DNA of 42,743 bases from Escherichia phage vB_EcoM-606R2, in sequence record ON470579.1; one strand, 5' to 3'. Positions within the stretch are counted from its first letter, which is position 1; each line of letters starts with the position of its first letter. Positions 2,255-42,743 of this stretch are shown here, piece by piece. Below the pieces are notes generated by a model. That model ran no database searches and was not told the origin of the DNA. It worked only from the letters and a program-made list of their open reading frames with translations. The translations under genes and the position numbers were made by a program.

Positions 2255-2309
2255 GTAAAGAATGCGCGTATAATGCCCGCCCGGTTTGTGTTGTTTTGAG
2301 AGTTTCCTT

Positions 2310-2357
2310 ATGGCGCTGTTAATCACTAAAAAATGCATCAATTGTGATATGTGTGAA
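2310..2357 (+). pseudogene. yfhL: 5' fragment of ferredoxin-like gene yfhL, interrupted by prophage insertion
   Basis: ATG at 2310 encodes MALLITKKCINCDMCE, the recalled N-terminus of the 4Fe-4S ferredoxin YfhL. The frame then diverges into AT-rich sequence and stops after two more codons. Confidence 0.65.
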
Positions 2358-2395
2358 ATTAAATAAAAATACATTTATTTTCATGGTGATGCAGT

Positions 2396-2419
2396 AATGT
2401 GTTATTGAATGTGTTATTG
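2396..2419 (+). repeat. tandem 12-bp direct repeat AATGTGTTATTG x2 near the prophage/host junction
   Basis: Read directly from the sequence; lies about 40 bp inside the presumed phage end. Confidence 0.85.
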
Positions 2420-2564
2420 AATTTATGGTGCAAAAAAATTTTGCATACGTTCAGCAACACAAAGAGCTCCCCTTTCTATAAAGGTTCATTTGAGACTCCC
2501 CCTTGACTCCCTCTTCGAAATTGAAGACCATTAACTGTACATAATTACAGTCCTGGATAATATT

Positions 2565-2831
2565 ATGCGCAGAAAAGAATCAAACGTTAGCAGTTTGCCG
2601 GAACTCACCAATTTTGAGGTAAGCTATTCCCTAGTTACCAATGAAGTTTACTTGTCTGCATCCTTCACTGATAACATGGCCTGTATACCAAACTGGCCCT
2701 TACAAGAATTTCCGGATCAACTAATATGCATTTCTCGAGCAAAAGCTATTGCCCTAATCGAAGAGCTCCAGAAGACCATCGACTATATGGACGCAGGAAT
2801 CGATCGACAATCAGGTAGCCTGCTCCAGTAG
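2565..2831 (+). CDS. hypothetical protein, AT-rich terminal cargo
   Basis: 88-aa ORF in an AT-rich region with a weak ribosome-binding site; no recognisable motif. Confidence 0.35.
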   Translation: MRRKESNVSSLPELTNFEVSYSLVTNEVYLSASFTDNMACIPNWPLQEFPDQLICISRAKAIALIEELQKTIDYMDAGIDRQSGSLLQ

Positions 2832-2964
2832 CTGGCGAGTTTTATACTCGTTCCCTGCAACAATGGGCTTTTGGTAAGGCACTCACAAATAAGGAATTCG
2901 TTAAGGCTTTTGTTCTGGAGACTCTGAAAGATACAAGGAATCAGTTGATGGCTGGTTTGATCAT

Positions 2965-3005
2965 ACTAATTAATATATTGTCAAACTCACAATATATTAA
3001 TTAGT
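2965..3005. repeat. perfect 16-bp inverted repeat (ACTAATTAATATATTG / CAATATATTAATTAGT) with 9-bp spacer
   Basis: Read directly from the sequence; lies between the 88-aa and 281-aa cargo ORFs. Candidate operator or AT-rich terminator hairpin. Confidence 0.8.
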
Positions 3006-27595: not shown

Positions 27596-28018
27596 TTATG
27601 CCGCCGGGCAGCTCCTTCGCAAAGTCCTGATAGCCTTAGGCTTTGACTGAACTGCTTGATCCATTTCCAGAACCACGTCCAGCATAGCCAGGCAGCCGTC
27701 GATAAATCCCTCTGCAGCCTGGAGCCTCTTCAGAACTTGAGTGTGTGATACGCCGAGCTTCACACCCATAGCCCTCACAGGCATCGCCTGGATGTAATGC
27801 CACTCAAGGAGCGTACACAGGTACGGATCTTTTTTCTTCAGGCAGTTCATAGCAGAGCTGATGATCAGACCGTCATTGTCACTGCACTTCAGCCGCCCGG
27901 CTTGCGTTGCAGGTAGCAGATTCTTAAATCCAGCGGAAACAGGTGGATAGTAGACACTGCAACCTTCGCTCGCAGCCCAGCCCCCCCATCGCTCTAAAAC
28001 CAGTCGAATATCACGCAT
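27596..28018 (-). CDS. late-gene antiterminator (Q-like)
   Basis: The N-terminus MRDIRLVLERWGGWAA resembles recalled Q-family antiterminators of lambdoid prophages, and the gene lies directly upstream of the lysis cassette. Confidence 0.55.
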   Translation of the reverse strand: MRDIRLVLERWGGWAASEGCSVYYPPVSAGFKNLLPATQAGRLKCSDNDGLIISSAMNCLKKKDPYLCTLLEWHYIQAMPVRAMGVKLGVSHTQVLKRLQAAEGFIDGCLAMLDVVLEMDQAVQSKPKAIRTLRRSCPAA

Positions 28019-28043
28019 AGCTCTGACCTCTACGTTTTGCTAC

Positions 28044-28334
28044 TTACCGTTCATCTTTCATTTTGAGGTTAGAAAGATGTTTAAGCCGCTGGCAATACGC
28101 TTTCCAGTAAGCCTCAGAGTGCATCGGGTGCTCGATATCGCTATACAGCCATACACAGTCGTCGCGCTGAGTTACCGGCGGTGGCGCCAACACATCTCGA
28201 GTGGCCTGCGTTAGTGCTCTTTTGAAGAAAAAAGCCTCCCCTAAGGGCTGGTAGTCTCTGTTGAATGCTTCCCAAGCCCCCTCAGCTGTTTTGCGGATAC
28301 CGTAAGGCATACATTGGCGGAATATCTTTGACAT
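28044..28334 (-). CDS. hypothetical phage protein
   Basis: 96-aa ORF between the primase/iteron region and the Q-like gene. Confidence 0.5.
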   Translation of the reverse strand: MSKIFRQCMPYGIRKTAEGAWEAFNRDYQPLGEAFFFKRALTQATRDVLAPPPVTQRDDCVWLYSDIEHPMHSEAYWKAYCQRLKHLSNLKMKDER

Positions 28335-28383
28335 CGTCGTATCCTCATTTAGTTATTTGCTAATTTTTTCAAGTTAATTTCCG

Positions 28384-28646
28384 GGTGACGGCTAGGTGAC
28401 GCGTAATTACATATCCGTCACCTGCTGCAAAGCGCGCCATATAAGGCCTGAAGATGTTTTAGGTGACAGGTGACGGTTGATTTTAGTTCTCTATATATAA
28501 GCGATCGTATAATACCTAAAATACACACTATCGCGTATATAGTTTTAAATTCTGCCGTCACCTGTCACCTTTAGCACATTTCCCATTGTTTTATATATAC
28601 TTTTTAAGGTGACGCTTAAGCGTTTTGCCGTCACCTAGCCGTCACC
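28384..28646. repeat. iteron array (candidate replication origin): about 10 copies of GGTGAC(GG)/(CC)GTCACC in both orientations around AT-rich cores
   Basis: Read directly from the sequence. Direct-orientation copies are at 28384, 28395, 28462, 28470 and 28608; inverted copies are at 28425, 28555, 28565, 28628 and 28639. The array lies immediately beside the primase gene. Confidence 0.7.
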
Positions 28647-28649
28647 TTT

Positions 28650-30911
28650 TTACAATCCAGATTGCAAAATTTCGCAAGATTTATATATTTCGCGCAATTC
28701 TTCGTTGCTGAAATCGTTATTTTTTACAAGAATCCAAATCCTATATACAAACCCGTCAATTTTTACGCGTACGGGTTCCCGCTTTGTTCTTTCTTTCAAA
28801 ATGCGAGTAATATGCTTCTGGTTAATTTCTACATCCATTCCTGCTTCTGCCAGTATTGCGTTAACAATTTGTTGATAAGTCATTGCTGGCACAGGCGGAT
28901 TATCCAGGATTTCAATAAGAGCAGCCTCCACATCGCTCTTATTGCTTTCAATCATCAGAAGGCGTTCTTTCGTCTCGGGGGCGCGCTGCCAGTTAAAGCG
29001 AGACAGGTCAACGCCCATCAGATACCAGTACACCTGGGCGATAAAGTCGCTGTCGCTTAGCGCACCGTACAGGCTGGCGTAATGCTCTTCAGTTGCGGCG
29101 AAGTCAGGGCCCCCCAGCACAGCGATACGTCGGTCTTCCTCTGGCAGCGCCAGCGCATCAAAGTGGTTGGTGTAGAACAGAAAGCCGGTGTATATATCCA
29201 TCGTTTTTTTGCTGCCATATTTGCGGTTCACTTCAAACCGTGGTTCTGTCAGCACGTCACGGATCTTATCGTTCACCTCATACCGCTTATCATTTTCGCG
29301 CACCTCGTCAATGGTGCATAGAAGCGTATTGTACAGATAGTCATGGAACTGGTTATCGCACAGGATCTTCATGCGAGTACGAGCACAGTTCCACGGACCA
29401 AGCACGCGCTCCATTAACTGGCTGACCCATCCTCTGCCCGTACCATGTGCGGAAGCCACATGCAGAATAGAAATCGGGCATCGACGCTCCGGACGCTGAA
29501 CCATCCACCCCAGACGGGCGATGAAAAACTCGCGCTGCCAGGCATCAGGTACCAGATACGCCATATGATTAAGGAACGTGGACACCTTACTTGTATCCGC
29601 TGTACGTGGATGCTCAGGCATATAAAATTCGTTTATCTCAAACCGCCCGTCGAAACGCTCGATAATACGTCCCGCACCGGGCTTATAGCCTGTCGTCTCA
29701 GCAATCTTCTTATGCCGATGCTCTATCCACCGTTTGGTTGCGGGAGTTGGTTGCCCTTTCCCTTCTGGCGGGAACTGGTAAGGCGCCATCAGGTTTTTGA
29801 ACGACTTCATATCCATCATGCACTGATATGGCGGTCGGCTAAGATCACATACCTGGTCACCCTCGATGACGTAGATAAAGCGTTCCAGAAAATGAGCTGT
29901 CATATCTGTATTAATATCGGTAAATTCAGGCTTATCGCCATCTTCAACCACCGTGAGATCTTCGAACAGGGATTGCGTATAGCCGTAGCCTTCCAGCCAG
30001 TCGGCATCAGTAAGCCCCGCATCGGTGTTGTGCATGCTTTTAAAATGTCCCTGTTCAAATCCCCCCGTCCCTTTTGGGAAATACTTAATGGATGTTTCGC
30101 TGCAACCGTTGCTGTATTCTGACTCATCCCGAAACGGTTTCAGATTGCGGGAACCATCAGAGCTGACTGACAGAGTCCACCCGTTCGCGTCAAGCCAGTC
30201 GGCGACATCATCTGTCGCGGAAGGATCAACACAGGAAAGATCACGCTGACGTCCTGCACCTGCGGTATAGCTGTCTTTCACGGGTAAGTTATCCGCCAGA
30301 CGCTGCCACAGGCTTTCGAGCTGTTCAGATGTAATTTTCAGAGGTTCGCCGGGCAGACCGCAGTCCCACTGAATACGTTCGCCTGCCGGATGGGTACCAC
30401 AAGCCACAAACTGCTGGCCCTTAGCGAGCAGCTCTATTTGTTTGTTTTCGCCTTCCAGGCGGTGACCACGTTTACGGTAGTCGCCATCAACAGCAATCAG
30501 GTACAGGCATTTATGACTGTCAGCCCGCCAGCGACGTGGCGGAAGTTCCCCCAGGCATGACAGGATAATATTGCGTACGATCTCCTGCATCCCGGCGTCA
30601 TTGATATCGCAGTCCAGAGCCACCACCCCGTCGCCAGTACGAACGCAAATACCGTAATCGGGTTCGTTCGACCACCGGGCAAAATCGTTTTCCGTAACAA
30701 CATAGTTAGCCCAGTCGGGGATACCAACAACCTTACGTTGGCCATTGTAGCGACTGGGGGTTTTGCCGAAATTATGAGACAGCTTGCTATTAGGCGACAG
30801 TTCTGCACAGGGATTGGACACCACAGGTAAAAGCCTGTCTGTCATCCCCAACACCAGATCGAAGTGGAACCACTCATCGGGCGTAGCTCCCCATGGTTTG
30901 TTATCAGACAT
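28650..30911 (-). CDS. primase/helicase (P4 alpha-like, D5-type)
   Basis: 753-aa ORF whose size, domain order and adjacent iterons match P4-alpha-type replication initiators. Confidence 0.7.
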   Translation of the reverse strand: MSDNKPWGATPDEWFHFDLVLGMTDRLLPVVSNPCAELSPNSKLSHNFGKTPSRYNGQRKVVGIPDWANYVVTENDFARWSNEPDYGICVRTGDGVVALDCDINDAGMQEIVRNIILSCLGELPPRRWRADSHKCLYLIAVDGDYRKRGHRLEGENKQIELLAKGQQFVACGTHPAGERIQWDCGLPGEPLKITSEQLESLWQRLADNLPVKDSYTAGAGRQRDLSCVDPSATDDVADWLDANGWTLSVSSDGSRNLKPFRDESEYSNGCSETSIKYFPKGTGGFEQGHFKSMHNTDAGLTDADWLEGYGYTQSLFEDLTVVEDGDKPEFTDINTDMTAHFLERFIYVIEGDQVCDLSRPPYQCMMDMKSFKNLMAPYQFPPEGKGQPTPATKRWIEHRHKKIAETTGYKPGAGRIIERFDGRFEINEFYMPEHPRTADTSKVSTFLNHMAYLVPDAWQREFFIARLGWMVQRPERRCPISILHVASAHGTGRGWVSQLMERVLGPWNCARTRMKILCDNQFHDYLYNTLLCTIDEVRENDKRYEVNDKIRDVLTEPRFEVNRKYGSKKTMDIYTGFLFYTNHFDALALPEEDRRIAVLGGPDFAATEEHYASLYGALSDSDFIAQVYWYLMGVDLSRFNWQRAPETKERLLMIESNKSDVEAALIEILDNPPVPAMTYQQIVNAILAEAGMDVEINQKHITRILKERTKREPVRVKIDGFVYRIWILVKNNDFSNEELREIYKSCEILQSGL

Positions 30912-30914
30912 GGG

Positions 30915-31115
30915 TTACGCCTTTTGTCTAGCTGTCACTTCCTGAAAAAGCTTTTCTATCGCACGTACTGTAGAAAAGCGAGGGTCAGAATGAACCCCGG
31001 TGAGAAGCCGACTAATAGAAGACTGCTTCACGCCTGCAATTTCGGCAATTTGGTTTTGGGTATACCCTGAATCAATCAAGCTTTTGACCATCTCTTGTGG
31101 TGTTAGTCCGGACAT
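30915..31115 (-). CDS. Cro-like HTH regulator
   Basis: 66-aa ORF with an HTH (QNQIAEIAGVKQSSISRL), divergent from the cI-like gene and first in the leftward operon. Confidence 0.65.
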   Translation of the reverse strand: MSGLTPQEMVKSLIDSGYTQNQIAEIAGVKQSSISRLLTGVHSDPRFSTVRAIEKLFQEVTARQKA

Positions 31116-31256: not shown

Positions 31257-31931
31257 ATGATTGATACTACCGATATCCTTTCTCAAAACATCAAGTACCT
31301 GATGGACAAAGCCAAGATAAGCTCGATAACTGAGCTGGCACGTCGGTTACAACTGAACCAACCAACGCTACACAGGCTGGTATCAGGAGAGGTGAAAGAT
31401 CCGAAATACGCAACGTTAAAGCAGATCGCCGACTACTTCCACGTGTCACCAATAGACCTGGCAGAAAGGAGCCTTCAAGAAATGGAGAAAGAGGACGCGA
31501 CGGGTATAAAAACGTATATTTCTCTTAGGTTTAATAAAGTACCTGTTTTGGGAAACACTCAGCTAGGCGTTGGAGGACTTTGGAGCGACACCCAATATTC
31601 AGTAGGTAGCAGTGATGGTTTCATATACTGGCCGACAAAGGATGAAGATGCATACGCCCTGAAATGTGTTGGTGATTCAATGATGCCTAGAATCAAAGAG
31701 GGTGAGTTCGTAATCGTCGAACCCAACCACGACTACACTCCTGGTGATGAAGTACTTGTGGTTACCCGGGACGGTGAGGTCATGGTTAAAACCTTCTTGT
31801 TCGAACGCGATGGCCTGTTCCATCTAATGTCTGTAAATGAAGATCATCCACCAGTCAGAGTACCACGCGAAAACATTGAAAAAATCCATTACGTGGCGGG
31901 GATCGCCAAATCCGCGCTACGCATGTACTAA
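31257..31931 (+). CDS. CI-like repressor (HTH plus LexA/S24 autopeptidase domain)
   Basis: An N-terminal HTH and a C-terminal S24 fold with the Ser nucleophile in CVGDSMMPRI and Lys in VMVKTF. Confidence 0.8.
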   Translation: MIDTTDILSQNIKYLMDKAKISSITELARRLQLNQPTLHRLVSGEVKDPKYATLKQIADYFHVSPIDLAERSLQEMEKEDATGIKTYISLRFNKVPVLGNTQLGVGGLWSDTQYSVGSSDGFIYWPTKDEDAYALKCVGDSMMPRIKEGEFVIVEPNHDYTPGDEVLVVTRDGEVMVKTFLFERDGLFHLMSVNEDHPPVRVPRENIEKIHYVAGIAKSALRMY

Positions 31932-34151: not shown

Positions 34152-35453
34152 ATGCCAGACGTTCATGCACAACTTTCTCCATCATCAGCGCATCGATGGA
34201 TGCGCTGCCCAGGAAGTCTGGCGCTGGAGGCCACACAACCGGATAAAGAAACAACTTTTGCAATCGAGGGCACTGCAGCGCACGCGCTTGCTGAAAAAGT
34301 TCTACGAAACAGGCAAAGCCACCCGGAACACTACGCCGGATGCAATGTTTCTATGTTTCTCGGCTCATACCCCCTTCGCGAAAATCCTGATGATACATCT
34401 GGCCCACAGGTGGATGATGAAATGGTCGAAGCCGTTGGCCGGTATGTTGATACGGTCTGGACTCTTGCACAGAATAATGAACTATTGGTTGAACAACGTG
34501 TTGATTTCTCACATATAACGGGTGTGGAAGAATCTTTCGGAACTGCCGACGGCATAATCATCGCTGGTAGCGAATTACAAATCCACGACCTGAAATATGG
34601 CAAAGGCGTCCGCATTGATGCAGAACAAAATGAGCAACTACAACTGTATGCTCTGGGTGCTCTCGAACAATTCAGCATGCTGTATGACTTTGAGACTGTA
34701 AGATTATTTATTCACCAGCCAAGGCTCAACCACGTTTCAGAATGGTCGTTAACCGTGCAGGAACTTCAGTCTTTCGGTAAACGAGCACAGGAGGCCGCAA
34801 CCAGTGCGATCCTTGTTCTCAATATTGCTGAATGCGAAGGCATTGAGACACTACCGCTGGAAAACTTCATACCTGGAGAAAAGCAGTGCCGCTTCTGTAA
34901 AGCAAAAGCTATTTGCACTGCCCAGAAAATGCAGCATTTACAAACAGCGGCCAGCGACTTTGAAGATCTGACAAAGCCTGTCAGCGAAATAATCACCAAT
35001 GCCAGCGCACGTGTACCTCTGTTAACCATTGAGCAGCTTGCGGAGATCTATAGCCAGGCCGACTTTATTGAGTCCTGGCTAAAGGCAGTACGGGACCGGG
35101 TTCACAATGAACTCAATGCCGGACATCCGGTACCGGGGTTTAAACTGGTAACAGGAAAACAAGGTAACCGGGCCTGGAGTGATGAAGAGGCAGCTCGCGC
35201 ACTTCTGAAGGACCAGTTCAGGTACAAAACTGAAGAAGTATTCGACTTTAAACTTATTAGTCCCACAAAAGCCGAAAAACTTATCAAAAAGGCCAGTCCA
35301 CGCCGTTGGTCAAAAGTCGAGGCACTGATAACACGAGCTGATGGTAAACCAACCGTCGTTCCCGAGTCAGACCCACGCCCCGCACTCAATATCAACCCTG
35401 TAAATGATTTCGACGACGTATCCGACGATACGCTAACCGCAGACCTCATCTGA
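34152..35453 (+). CDS. PD-(D/E)xK exonuclease, Cas4/RecB-like
   Basis: The N-terminal [15 protein letters not shown] signature and a C-terminal Cys cluster ([10 protein letters not shown]) match the Cas4-like phage nuclease family as recalled (DUF2800-type). Confidence 0.65.
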
Positions 35454-35468
35454 TTTAAGGAAATACCC

Positions 35469-36017
35469 ATGAAACTGAAGCTGAACAATGTTCGTCTGGC
35501 CTTCCCGTCTCTGTTTGAAGCTAAAACTGTAAACGGCGAAGGCGATCCGCGTTTCTCCGCAGTATTTTTAATGTCTCCCAAACACCCACAACTGGAAGAA
35601 ATCCGTAAAGCTATGAAGCAGGTAGCGAAGGAAAAATGGGGAGAGAAGTGGGAGCCCATTTATAACCAGCTGGAGAAAAAACTCAATCTGTGCCTGCATG
35701 ATGGTGATGAAAAAGCAGAGTATGAAGGCTTCCCCGGCAATTTCTTCCTGAATGCTGCTAACAAAGCGCGCCCAGCTGTTCTTGATCGCGATCGTTCGCC
35801 ACTTATTCAGGCTGACGGACGTCCTTATGCAGGGTGCTATGTAAACGCCGTTATCGATATCTGGGCACAGGACAATAATTTCGGTAAACGCATTAATGCC
35901 TCACTCGGCGGAGTCCAGTTCCTGCGAGACGGCGATGCATTCGCTGGCGGCGGAGTGGCAAGCGCTGACGATTTCGACGATATCAGCGAAGGTGCTGATG
36001 CTGAAGCACTAATTTAA
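35469..36017 (+). CDS. phage replication-module protein (DUF2815-like, probable ssDNA-binding)
   Basis: 182-aa ORF with an acidic C-terminal tail (DDFDDISEGADAE) typical of SSB-like proteins, following the nuclease. Confidence 0.5.
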   Translation: MKLKLNNVRLAFPSLFEAKTVNGEGDPRFSAVFLMSPKHPQLEEIRKAMKQVAKEKWGEKWEPIYNQLEKKLNLCLHDGDEKAEYEGFPGNFFLNAANKARPAVLDRDRSPLIQADGRPYAGCYVNAVIDIWAQDNNFGKRINASLGGVQFLRDGDAFAGGGVASADDFDDISEGADAEALI

Positions 36018-36745: not shown

Positions 36746-38809
36746 ATGTCCAATATACTATGGGGCGACCTGGAAACCTATTGCGAAATCCCTATTACGA
36801 ACGGTACCCATGCGTATGCCGAAGGCGTTGAAGTGATGCTTTTCGCATGGGCTATCAACGACGGGCCAGTAAACGTGTGGGATATCACTGCCGGTGGTGG
36901 TATTCCACACGGCTTATACGAAGCAATCGCAGACCCTGAAACCCTGCTTTATTTCCATAACTCTCACTTCGACCGCACCGTTCTGCGTTATGCAATGCCG
37001 CGACTGGCACCGCCAGTCGAACGTTGGCGCGACACGATGGTGCAGGCGCTGGCGCACGGTCTCCCGGGGTCTCTGGGGGAACTCTGCGAAGTACTAGGCG
37101 TCCCGCAAGACAAAGCGAAGGACAAAGAAGGTAAAGCGCTGATCCAGCTGTTCTGTAAGCCACGTCCGAAAAACAGCAAACTGCGTCGGGCCACCAGTAA
37201 AACCCATCCGGAAGAATGGCGGCGCTTTGTTGCTTACGCCGGACTGGATATCGAAGCAATGCGTGAAGTCTATAAACGTCTGCCGAAGTGGAATTATCAG
37301 GGGACAGAGCTGGCGCTCTGGCATCGTGATCAGCAGATCAACGACCGGGGCGTCTGCATGGACATGCAACTCGCGCGCGCTGCGATCGAAGCGGTAGACC
37401 AGGAGCAAAAGCGCCTGGCAAAGCGTACACAGGAAATGACTGATGGCGAAGTGCAGGCAGCCACACAACGGGACGCGTTGATTAAGCACATCGTTGAATC
37501 CTACGGTGTGGAGCTACCAGACATGCAACGCAGTACCCTGGAACGTCGTATGGCCGACCCCGATTTATCATCTGCCGTGAAAGAACTGCTGGCTATCCGC
37601 CTGCAAGCCAGTACTACCAGCACCAGTAAATACAAGGCACTGATGAAAGGCGTAAGCCACGACGGGCGCTTACGCGGTACGCTACAGTTCTGCGGGGCGT
37701 CACGTACCGGTCGTTGGGCCGGACGGCTATTCCAGCCCCAGAACCTTCCCCGCCCTTCACTAAAACAGGAACAAATAGACGAAGGCATCGAAGCACTGAA
37801 AGCCGGATGTGCAGACCTGCTGTTTGACAATATCATGGAACTAACCAGTTCAGCGTTACGTGGCTGCATTATCGCGCCAACAGGCAAAAAACTAGTGGTA
37901 AGTGACTTGTCAAACATTGAAGGCCGTATGCTGGCATGGCTGGCGGGAGAAGAATGGAAACTGAATGCATTCAGAGAGTATGACGCTGGAACGGGTCCGG
38001 ACTTATATAAACTGGCGTATGCAAAAGCTTTCGATATTGCACCAGATGATGTTGATAAACACATGCGTCAGATCGGTAAAGTCATGGAACTCGGTCTGGG
38101 TTATGGAGGTGGTGTATCGGCTTTCATCACTTTTGCTCTGGTTTACGGTCTCGATCTCGACGAGCTGGCGAACGCCGCACTGCCAAACATTCCCCGCGAT
38201 GTTATCCGCGAGGCAAAAAGCTGGTACGACGAATCGGTTAAGCGTAAGTCGACCTTTGGCCTGTCCGAGCGTGTATTCATCGCATGTGACTCGCTCAAGC
38301 GCCTGTGGCGCAGGGCGCACCCGGCGACCTGCGATTTCTGGTACGAGCTGGAGCGCACTGTCCGCACAGCAATCGCCACACCGCAAAAAACATTGTATTG
38401 CGGCTATCTTAAAATCCGACGTGATGGCGCGTGGCTGCGCATACAGCTACCATCCGGACGCGCTGTATGCTACCCGTCTCCGGTTATCGAACAAGGGAAT
38501 ATCACCTACATGGGTGTTAACTCTTATTCGCGTAAATGGCAACGACTCAAAACCTACGGCGGAAAGCTGGTGGAGAACGTCACCCAGGCGGCCGCCCGCG
38601 ACGTTCTAGCCAGAAACATGCCGCTGATCGAGGGTGCCGGTTACAGCATTGTGCTAACGGTACACGACGAGGTGATCACCGAAGCACCAGACACAGAAGA
38701 TTTCAACGATAAAGCGCTTTCCGCGCTTCTCTCCACTAACCCCGAATGGGCACCCGATATTCCGCTGAACGCTGGCGGCTTTGAGGCGTACCACTACAAA
38801 AAAGATTGA
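36746..38809 (+). CDS. DNA polymerase, family A, with 3'-5' exonuclease domain
   Basis: Exonuclease motif GDLET; polymerase motif A ([13 protein letters not shown]), motif B ([15 protein letters not shown]) and motif C (VHDE). Confidence 0.85.
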
Positions 38810-38873: not shown

Positions 38874-39635
38874 ATGCAGGAACTAACTGAAATGCCGATC
38901 AACTATCCATACCCGAGAGAATCTTTTCCTGACTTTTTGAGGGAGTGTGGGTTCACCAATTTTTCCCACGAACAGCGTGAGACTTATGACTGCTATCGTT
39001 TAACGAATGGCGTAATTGTTAACCTTTACACCACCCGGACCATTCAGTTTCAAGGGAACCCTCAAGAACGTCCCAATGTTGAAACTGCAATAATGTCCCA
39101 TTTAGGAACGCCCCCCACGGCAACACCACTAGCCGTAGAACAGCCATCTGAGCTTCCCAAAAAGATATTCATTGTTCACGGCCATGACCATACTGCAAAG
39201 GAACAACTTGAGCTAATCCTTCATAAACTTGGATTACCAGACCATTTCATTTTGCAGAATACGGGAGGGACTGGACTCACCATTATTGAAGAGCTTGAAC
39301 GTGAAATTGGGCAAGGACAAACTGCTACTCGTTTCGGGATTGTTCTTTTGACACCTGATGATATGGGATACTCAAAGCGCGCCGGTGAAGCAGAAATCCA
39401 ACCCCGCGCAAGACAGAACGTTGTACTCGAGATGGGTATGCTTCTTTCGTCCTTAGGGCGCAGCAATGTAGCAATCCTTCAGAAACAGCACCTAGAACAG
39501 CCTTCTGATGCTAACGGGATTTTGTATCTGAATTTCAACGACCATGTACGTGAAACAGTTCCTCGTCTAGTGCAACGGTTACAAAATTCTGGTTTCGAAT
39601 TTACACAAGCTCAAATAGCTAACGCTTCCTCGTAA
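38874..39635 (+). CDS. TIR-like domain protein (COG4271 / Cap12-type TIR-like fold) with an unknown N-terminal domain
   Basis: The C-terminal region has the pattern KIFIVHGHD ... FGIVLLTPDD ... RARQNVVLEMGMLL ... PSD, recalled as typical of the TIR-like nucleotide-binding family. Not confirmed by search. Confidence 0.55.
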   Translation: MQELTEMPINYPYPRESFPDFLRECGFTNFSHEQRETYDCYRLTNGVIVNLYTTRTIQFQGNPQERPNVETAIMSHLGTPPTATPLAVEQPSELPKKIFIVHGHDHTAKEQLELILHKLGLPDHFILQNTGGTGLTIIEELEREIGQGQTATRFGIVLLTPDDMGYSKRAGEAEIQPRARQNVVLEMGMLLSSLGRSNVAILQKQHLEQPSDANGILYLNFNDHVRETVPRLVQRLQNSGFEFTQAQIANASS

Positions 39636-41348: not shown

Positions 41349-42743
41349 ATGCCCCCAAAATATATACCTCGCCCCTACCAAGTTCTCATTATCAACCACG
41401 AAACCGAAACCCTGCGCGGCAACATCTGGGCGGGGATGGGAATGGGTAAAACCGTGGCAACGCTCACTGCGCTGGAAGATCTCTTTATGGCAGGGGCAGA
41501 AACATGCCCCGCACTGGTCCTCGCGCCGCTGCGCGTGGCTGCCAGCACATGGCCGGATGAAGCACTGAAGTGGGGACATTTGCGCAATATCGAGGTGCAG
41601 CCAATTATTGGTAATGCCAAAGCGCGCTCTATGGCGCTGACGAACAGCAACGCAAGCGTGTTCACCATCAACTACGATAACCTTGTCTGGCTGATTGAAG
41701 AATTGGGAGAACGATGGCCGTTCGGTACTGTCATTCCAGATGAAAGCACCCGGCTAAAATCCTTCCGGCTGCGCGGTGGTGGTAAGCGCGCGGCGGCGCT
41801 GGGCAAAGTGGCGCATAAGTATGTCCGGCGCTGGATAAATCTCACCGGTACGCCAGCACCGAACGGCCTGGTAGATTTGTGGGGACAATCGTGGTTTGTG
41901 GACCAGGGGCAACGTCTCGGGCGCACTTACGGCGCGTTTACCTCACGCTGGTTCAACTCGATACAGTTTCCGGGGCAGAGCTGGACCAAACTGGAGCCTT
42001 TTGCTCACTCACAGGGTGAAATACAGCGAGCGTTAGCCGATGTAACCCTCTCGCTGGATGCGGCCGACTGGTTCGATATCAAAGACCCCATCCATAACGT
42101 AATCCGCGTGGATATGCCACCGAAGGCCCGTCAGCAGTATCGTGAAATGGAAAAGGAAATGTTCCTCGAGCTGAATGGCGAAGGCATCGAAGCACCGAAC
42201 GCCGCGGCAAAGACACTGAAGTGTCTGCAAATCGCCAGCGGCGCAGTATACACAGATGACACCGGAAGTTGGTCAGAACTGCATGACACCAAACTACAGG
42301 CGCTGGACAGCATACTGACCGAAGCAGCTGGCGCACCTGTGCTGGTTGCTTATCACTGGAAACACGATCTTGAACGCTTGCTTAAAGCATTCCCTCGCGG
42401 TCGTCACCTCGACCAGGATCCACAGACACTGCGCGACTGGAATTCCGGAAAGATTCCTGTTCTCTTTGCACACCCAGCCAGCGCGGGCCACGGCCTGAAC
42501 ATGCAGGACGGCGGAAATATACTGGTATTTTTCTCACACTGGTGGGACCTGGAGCAATATCAGCAAATTATTGAACGTATCGGCCCCACCAGGCAGATAC
42601 AGGCCGGACACAATCGTCCGGTATTTATTCACCACATTATTGCTGCCGACACTATGGATGAAATGGTGATGGAGCGGCGCAACTCAAAACGAACAGTGCA
42701 GGACATCCTGCTCGATGCCATGAAAAAGAGAGGTATAGCATGA
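41349..42743 (+). CDS. SNF2/DEAD-like DNA helicase
   Basis: Motif I GMGKT, a PRPYQ-type Q motif, motif II DEST and C-terminal helicase motifs; ribosome-binding site AGGAG. Confidence 0.75.
   Translation: MPPKYIPRPYQVLIINHETETLRGNIWAGMGMGKTVATLTALEDLFMAGAETCPALVLAPLRVAASTWPDEALKWGHLRNIEVQPIIGNAKARSMALTNSNASVFTINYDNLVWLIEELGERWPFGTVIPDESTRLKSFRLRGGGKRAAALGKVAHKYVRRWINLTGTPAPNGLVDLWGQSWFVDQGQRLGRTYGAFTSRWFNSIQFPGQSWTKLEPFAHSQGEIQRALADVTLSLDAADWFDIKDPIHNVIRVDMPPKARQQYREMEKEMFLELNGEGIEAPNAAAKTLKCLQIASGAVYTDDTGSWSELHDTKLQALDSILTEAAGAPVLVAYHWKHDLERLLKAFPRGRHLDQDPQTLRDWNSGKIPVLFAHPASAGHGLNMQDGGNILVFFSHWWDLEQYQQIIERIGPTRQIQAGHNRPVFIHHIIAADTMDEMVMERRNSKRTVQDILLDAMKKRGIA

Follow-up and report, generated by a model that had tools for sequence, protein, structure and literature searches.

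Directly behind the primase gene of Escherichia phage vB_EcoM-606R2 lies a cluster of short repeats, and the question raised by this locus is whether these repeats form the replication origin of the phage and, if so, which protein reads them. We analysed a stretch of 42,743 nucleotides of this phage (ON470579.1), hereafter the window, which belongs to a temperate E. coli myophage and is 100% identical between positions 28000 and 29000 to Escherichia phage vB_EcoM-611R5 (ON470588). An earlier note on this DNA had described about ten copies of GGTGAC or its complement GTCACC, direct copies mostly on the left and inverted copies mostly on the right of AT-rich sequence, and had proposed a P4-type origin adjoining a P4-alpha-like primase. 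An exact-core scan of the window bore out the count and the coordinates, finding exactly ten cores at 28384-28646, five per strand, oriented + + - + + in the left half and - - + - - in the right, just as the described asymmetry would have it. The layout is a near-perfect dyad of 3+2 and 2+3 sites centred at about 28515, and its AT-rich interior was likewise correctly recognized:

28384-28646, no strand: whole ten-iteron array, proposed origin (core scan; recurrence in relatives)
28384-28422, no strand: distal (Q-side) iteron triplet, 28384-28389 (+), 28395-28400 (+) and 28417-28422 (-), spacings 11 and 22 bp
28462-28474, plus strand: inner iteron pair facing the core, 28462-28467 and 28469-28474, 7 bp apart
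28475-28556, no strand: AT-rich core of 82 bp, presumed melting region, 30.5% GC against 49% in the window
28557-28569, minus strand: inner iteron pair facing the core, 28557-28562 and 28564-28569
28608-28646, no strand: proximal (gene-side) iteron triplet, 28608-28613 (+), 28630-28635 (-) and 28641-28646 (-)

The remaining 42.5 kb of the window hold 26 cores, or 0.16 expected per 263 bp, against which ten cores in 263 bp have a Poisson probability, P(>=10), of 2.8e-15. The array is the sole iteron cluster of the 42.7-kb genome, since elsewhere no 300 bp contain more than two exact cores. The extended repeat unit measures about 11 bp and reads A-GGTGAC-GG-n-T-A, with spacings of 11 bp in the outer direct pairs, 22 bp in the outer inverted pairs and 7 bp in the inner pairs. 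Within the AT-rich core sits an inner dyad, CTATATATAAGCGA (28491-28504) and TCGCGTATATAG (28531-28542), which is kept across genera while the iterons vary, as CTATATACGCG...CGTATATAG in Citrobacter, Salmonella, Klebsiella, Serratia and Izhakiella, and which may be an unwinding or priming site. The sequence of this dyad (28491-28542) is alternating pyrimidine-purine, CTATATA..CG and CGCGTATATAG (also given as CG..TATATAG); Xenorhabdus and a VapE-type locus have long (CG/CA)n runs in its place. GC skew near the array was uninformative at the scale of the array.

The array fills a gap of 315 bp that separates the primase-helicase stop codon from an ORF of 96 aa, in an early-right operon with the order cI, cro, primase-helicase, array, small ORF and Q. 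The genes in question, together with those of a leftward operon, are as follows:

27596-28018, minus strand: antiterminator Q
28044-28334, minus strand: small ORF, 96 aa
28650-30911, minus strand: primase-helicase initiator gene, 753 aa (Pfam; PHROG 1156 'DNA primase'; NrS-1 structure match)
30915-31115, minus strand: cro-like HTH
31257-31931, plus strand: cI-like repressor
34152-35453, leftward operon: DUF2800 nuclease
35469-36017, leftward operon: Enc34-type SSB
36746-38809, leftward operon: family-A polymerase
41349-42743, leftward operon: SNF2-type helicase

Between the family-A polymerase and the SNF2-type helicase, a TIR-domain protein is encoded at 38874-39635 on the plus strand (Pfam CAP12/Pycsar effector TIR, E = 3e-31), which may be defence or counter-defence cargo.

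For comparison we examined 52 loci ranging from E. coli to Avibacterium, 31 of them further viral contigs. Alignment with relatives revealed 1-bp and 4-bp indels within the array, which is therefore non-coding, and no annotated feature lay under it among those listed for 45 E. coli genomes carrying the array; a conserved coding frame in relatives, the circumstance that the earlier note had named as speaking against an origin, was thus looked for and is not there. A 47-aa ORF at 28418-28561 was rejected as a gene, being disrupted by indels in relatives, not conserved and unannotated among the listed features. A known RNA family was rejected as well, since Rfam returned sub-threshold miRNA-hairpin matches only, which are caused by the dyad.

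At every locus examined, the early-right transcription unit encloses the array, which follows the primase-helicase and precedes Q. This position could also suit a transcriptional control element at which the winged helix described below, or another factor, modulates read-through to the small ORF and Q and so times the late genes, with no role as an origin. Ten bound proteins would make a roadblock. Consensus scans of the 315-bp gap, however, found no promoter-like or terminator-like sites, an AT-rich core within a dyad of opposed sites has no obvious part to play in a roadblock, and the domain that appears to read the array belongs to the same polypeptide as a primase and a helicase; we consider purely transcriptional control very unlikely. 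Transcription from pR has to pass through the array before it gets to Q, so the array may regulate as well, and such a role could coexist with origin function.

The candidate reader of the array is the product of the adjoining gene, which combines a primase, a helicase core and a predicted DNA-binding domain:

30357-30689, minus strand: Prim-Pol/AEP domain, residues 75-185 (Pfam)
29127-29453, minus strand: DUF5906 SF3 helicase core, residues 487-595 (Pfam)
28653-28934, minus strand: predicted winged-helix DNA-binding domain, residues ~660-753 (model)
28674-28805, minus strand: specificity-determining segment, residues 703-746 (protein alignment; comparison of motifs with cores)

Searches of PDB sequences gave a sole match, the NrS-1 primase-helicase (6k9c/6k9e), to the helicase core. 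The C-terminal domain has no Pfam family match, and a fold search with it returned generic winged-helix domains only, at modest scores, with neither the P4 origin-binding domain nor SaPI Rep among the matches. In the model, a recognition helix at about residues 698-709 is followed by a beta-hairpin at 714-727 and then by a C-terminal helix. The helicase core is atypical in its P-loop, S-A-H-G-T-G-R-G-W (residues 487-495; 29427-29453, minus strand), in which Arg493 (29433-29435) replaces the Walker-A lysine and a glycine stands in place of the Ser/Thr that follows it. HGTGRGW is invariant in all 52 family ORFs examined, where NrS-1 has GTGKG and the primase of phage Chi GSGKT in the alignment, while Walker B (D535, E536), N582 and R594/R595 are conserved. 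As the exchange of lysine for arginine is family-wide, the motor may be an unconventional helicase.

Comparison of the relatives provides the strongest indication of what the array does. Its ten-site layout recurs in 51 of the 52 loci, with relative positions preserved in about 45, and the further viral contigs show the same pattern (array in 30 of 31). In about 45 of the 52 loci the first iteron core also lies no more than five nucleotides from the stop codon; in the window it begins at the fourth nucleotide past the stop. The core is GGTGAC, GGTGGC, GGTAAC, GGTGTC, GGTTGC or TGACAC depending on the locus, and every locus uses one type in all copies. Six further E. coli prophages have arrays that align column for column with that of the window, and all ten sites, the three of the distal triplet among them, read GGTGGC in C11, STEC435, O121 and TB06051, and GGTAAC in B771 and CREC-544.

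This concerted switch is accompanied by a change at the end of the primase-helicase. The seven E. coli proteins (that of the window and those of the six prophages) are 97-98% identical, and nearly all class-specific differences fall in residues 703-746, which in the predicted structure map to the end of the recognition helix and to the beta-hairpin. The winged-helix motif is REPVRV-KIDGFVYRIW in the GGTGAC class, REAVKL-KVDGMTVRMW in the GGTGGC class and RQPTDLVKIDGMGYRFW in the GGTAAC class. Overall, one body (at least 99% identity over residues 1-700) bears three winged-helix/iteron types, and bodies that are only 79-81% identical, from Citrobacter, Salmonella and a second E. coli lineage, carry the winged-helix motif of the window, REPVRVKIDGFVYRIW, together with GGTGAC. 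A Klebsiella aerogenes relative with 79% body identity has the core GGTGTC. More distant relatives, with 42-70% body identity (Izhakiella, Serratia, Arsenophonus, Xenorhabdus, Limnobaculum and Avibacterium), retain ten sites with GGTGAC, GGTAAC, GGTTGC, GGTGGC or TGACAC as the core, mostly at unchanged positions relative to the stop and shifted in Arsenophonus and Avibacterium.

Across the 51 array-bearing loci there was no case of an identical hairpin motif with two different cores, and the three residues after a conserved Gly, with their neighbours, predict core positions 4-5. Hairpins with FVY or IAQ go with GGTGAC; CTN, FTN and STQ with GGTGTC; MTV, LTV, DTL, DTV, KKE and KKL with GGTGGC; KTE with GGTTGC; and MGY, IGY and IAY with GGTAAC. 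The core type follows the last ~50 residues of the primase-helicase and not its body, cI, cro or the downstream ORF: the 96-aa ORF is 100% identical between GGTGAC and GGTGGC loci, and an identical cI (WP_001046700.1) is paired with both GGTGGC and GGTAAC.

Three loci depart from this picture in their own ways. In contig IMGVR_UViG_2528768011_000002 (L121) the gene has a C-terminal tail extended by about 19 residues, the array is missing and coding resumes 14 nt past the stop, and in IMGVR_UViG_2654587792_000007 (L097) a premature stop at codon 731 lies 67 nt ahead of an intact array; either contig may represent a defective prophage. E. coli VL7S7 (L008, NZ_CM177009) was rejected as a fourth class, since an IS1A insertion (2288-3000) truncates the 3' end of its primase-helicase; the insertion removes the winged helix and the origin, consistent with prophage decay.

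Because all ten repeats change together with the DNA-binding tail of the primase-helicase in relatives, we regard it as likely that the array is the replication origin of the phage, of the self-loading initiator-helicase type. The covariation thus lends strong support, at the level of sequence comparison, to the proposal in the earlier note of an origin that the primase recognizes through its C-terminal domain. A literature search found no description of an origin in the phage family that carries this primase-helicase.

The same observations bear on two further explanations of the array. As single-stranded DNA it folds into a 260-nt hairpin of -56.6 kcal/mol (z = -9.3), a structure that is expected because the repeats are opposed, and the origin of plasmid pRN1 is a 100-nt stem-loop 3' of orf904 (PMC4234260). 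It could therefore be argued that the array is an origin or element recognized by its structure, as for pRN1 ORF904-type proteins, in which the dyad hairpin or cruciform matters and the concerted changes are pairing compensation. Pairing, however, needs pairwise compensation only, yet direct copies (sites 1/2, 4/5, 6/7 and 9/10) also share their core, all ten sites switch to a single sequence per locus, and the winged-helix sequence predicts the core type, which leaves little credence for a purely structural element, even if cruciform extrusion may assist melting. Packaging (pac/TerS), partition or another non-replication cis function appears extremely improbable: short repeated motifs are also typical for TerS and ParB sites, but terminases vary inside one iteron class (P27-family plus HNH, or other TerS proteins), the genes examined include no partition genes, the relatives are chromosomal prophages, and the array covaries with the tail of the primase-helicase rather than with late genes.

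Since the winged helix is encoded next to the array, linkage in one recombination tract could explain part of the covariation. The argument for recognition is built on three points: the switch is concerted over ten copies, identical pairs of motif and core reappear on backbones that are unrelated, and the limits of the exchanged segment are exact. These limits can be seen in the alignment of the window with E. coli C11:

28388-28782, no strand: specificity cassette of 395 bp, comprising the iteron array and codons 710-753 (window against E. coli C11)

The two sequences have no mismatches in 28016-28387, 110 in 28388-28782 and 5 in 28783-29400. The cassette is thus 28% diverged, and its ends lie at position 5 of the outermost iteron and at codon 710; given flanks so poor in mismatches, the 395 bp must have been exchanged or have diverged as a unit. 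Judged by these alignments, winged helix and iterons are inherited in the manner of a cassette.

Inside the cassette there is a 34-bp island without mismatches to C11 (28643-28677). It takes in the 3' end of the gene (the final nine codons, S-CEILQSGL, and the stop), a spacer of three bases and the initial four bases of the proximal core. A palindrome, TTGCAAAATTTCGCAA (28662-28677), lies almost wholly within this island. A second palindrome, TTGCA-N6-TGCAA, is found in O121, TB06051, B771, CREC-544 and Salmonella locus L090, mirrored on the far side of the distal triplet, and is degenerate in the window (28357-28372). The palindrome TTGC-N8-GCAA has one match in the window against 1.5 expected, and is not significant alone.

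How far does the likeness to P4 reach? We read the P4 iteron, ori and crr directly from NC_001609, where the type-1 repeat is indeed TGTTCACC/GGTGAACA, crr follows directly on the 3' end of alpha, with ori at a distance of 4.5 kb. The P4 repeat as given in the earlier note is thus correct, and P4 alpha resembles the protein of the window in uniting primase, SF3 helicase and C-terminal origin-binding domain in one polypeptide, with short iterons in both orientations, clustered directly 3' of the gene. That GGTGAC looks like the P4 repeat is nevertheless incidental, because primase-helicases that are 97-98% identical use GGTGGC or GGTAAC instead. The description of the adjoining gene as P4-alpha-like stands in part: the array does adjoin it, and both proteins contain DUF5906 (PF19263; residues 500-608 in P4 alpha and 487-595 in the window protein), whereas the type of primase and the C-terminal domain differ and sequence similarity is lacking. 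P4 alpha consists of Zn-ribbon, Toprim, D5_N, DUF5906 and Pox_D5, the window protein of Prim-Pol (AEP) and DUF5906; against Pfam the latter gave no Zn_Ribbon_Prim or Toprim_3 at E <= 1 and no D5_N or Pox_D5 match. BLASTP between the two proteins gave E = 0.32 and hhalign of their C-terminal domains a probability of 0.5%. Apart from the shared DUF5906 core, homology to P4 alpha was thus rejected by BLASTP, Pfam and hhalign, though the modelled C-terminal domain of the window protein probably has the winged-helix fold class in common with that of P4 alpha. Replication of P4 also needs two sites 4.5 kb apart, with crr formed by two 120-bp direct repeats, in contrast to the single dyad array of the window. 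The relationship to P4 is one of analogy only.

The P4 comparison does suggest another function for the array, namely that of an accessory site like crr (enhancer, handcuffing or copy control), bound by the initiator while initiation takes place elsewhere. In P4, crr occupies the equivalent place directly 3' of the alpha gene, shares its iterons with the true ori 4.5 kb off, and is a required cis element without being the initiation site. The window differs in that its 42.7-kb genome offers no second iteron cluster and the array encloses an AT-rich core of its own, whose inner dyad is conserved, features that mark a melting site; moreover, SaPI and PICI origins of like layout suffice for replication (PMC9371898, PMC6092414). 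A purely accessory role is therefore unlikely in our estimate, and the array itself remains the preferred candidate for the origin.

The closest described organisation is that of these SaPI/PICI origins, closer than P4. The systems compared were Staphylococcus aureus SaPI1, SaPIbov1 and SaPI5 PriRep5, and E. coli EcCICFT073. Origins proven by experiment in SaPIs and the E. coli PICI EcCICFT073 have their iterons directly 3' of the gene for an SF3 initiator, a helicase whose C-terminal winged helix reads iterons of 5-6 nt; 6-12 iterons lie downstream, with an AT-rich centre and at least two opposed iterons on each side, a primase is sometimes fused to the initiator, and specificity is allelic between elements (PMC9371898, PMC6092414). 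Autonomous replication of EcCICFT073 pri-rep-ori has been assayed by plasmid (PMC6092414). The window matches this organisation in an array immediately 3' of the initiator ORF and in opposed iteron sets around a core poor in GC. Its initiator has a predicted C-terminal winged helix, whose hairpin covaries consistently with the core in the 51 of 52 loci that have an array and which may determine iteron specificity. The window differs in that it comes from a temperate myophage of full size, equipped with cI, cro, Q and a Pol A of its own, rather than from a satellite, in a layout fixed at 3+2 and 2+3 units of ~11 bp, and in the arginine that its family has for the Walker-A lysine, a residue required in SaPI, where K186A and K521A mutants fell short of wild-type replication (PMC9371898).

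With respect to domain order, the window protein is like NrS-1, to whose structure 6k9c its helicase core matches, and like proteins of the pRN1 ORF904 type (archaeal plasmid pRN1; Bordetella phage BIP-1). ORF904 joins AEP, SF3 and winged helix, and its stem-loop origin, which lacks iterons, lies directly 3' of the gene (PMC4234260). The origin proposed for the window is placed likewise, but comprises ten discrete iterons, direct copies included, that covary with the winged helix.

Among temperate phages, the inheritance of specificity and origin as one unit recalls the lambdoid phages. There, the DNA-binding part of the O initiator covaries with the adjacent iterons of ori-lambda, the two are inherited as one unit, and transcription from pR crosses the origin. 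Lambda O is neither helicase nor primase, recruits the host DnaB via P and has its iterons inside the O gene, and the window also differs from lambda in iteron number and symmetry.

A sibling initiator occupies the same position, X in the order cI, cro, X, gap, small ORF, Q, in E. coli contig AASONX010000036 (L171:3748-3990; protein P0046). Its N-terminal Prim-Pol part is 97% identical to that of the window protein and its C-terminal half is VapE-like. The array that follows shares the architecture but repeats an unrelated iteron, TACTCAACCT/AGGTTGAGTA, about ten times around an alternating purine-pyrimidine core, and the VapE-type sibling occurs in many viral contigs (L122-L169).

From these comparisons we infer physical binding, melting of the core, a double-oligomer geometry and initiation at the array, which would proceed as follows. 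The early-right operon, through cro and then the primase-helicase, would yield the 753-aa protein with its AEP primase, SF3 core and C-terminal winged helix, and the winged helix would read the ~11-bp iterons that begin at the fourth nucleotide past the stop of its own gene. The five sites of each half-origin, an outer triplet and an inner pair facing the centre, would nucleate two opposed oligomers flanking the 82-bp core. The AT-rich core would then melt, the Prim-Pol domain would prime, and the phage's own family-A polymerase and SSB from the leftward operon would carry out extension, presumably bidirectionally.

The phage family is carried by about 1% of complete E. coli genomes, with relatives in Salmonella, Klebsiella, Citrobacter, Serratia and Xenorhabdus, and all copies of the array seen in annotated records are unannotated. 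The same module, in the GGTGGC class, is found in the Stx2b-converting prophage of E. coli STEC435 (L003; NZ_CP129348, 1689-2924 and 4001-6576), where the stx2b genes lie just downstream of Q. As this Stx2b prophage uses the primase-helicase/origin module, its replication control would differ from the lambda O/P paradigm.

The mechanism as such is not novel, origins of this kind having been described in P4 and in satellites of the pathogenicity-island type; the useful natural feature is the compact, exchangeable specificity cassette. A bolder interpretation, which we offer tentatively and hold to be possible rather than probable, is that the cassette is horizontally exchanged and divides enterobacterial prophages that are identical in other respects, Stx2b phages among them, into mutually orthogonal replicon types (groups of incompatibility or of protection against hijacking). 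On the same tentative footing, the allelic series, with at least six cores and at least 15 hairpin variants, might be a readable winged-helix/DNA code, and the Walker-A arginine might make the SF3 module an ATP-binding origin melter or loader with slow or no hydrolysis, as opposed to a conventional fork helicase.

The analysis assigns a testable origin and a determinant of initiator specificity to widespread temperate phages of Enterobacterales. A layout described as unique to phage-inducible chromosomal islands is also present in full-size phages of the helper type, which bears on where satellite replicons originated. Finally, the pairs of winged helix and iteron on near-identical backbones make up a ready set of orthogonal replicons and a source of data on protein-DNA recognition.
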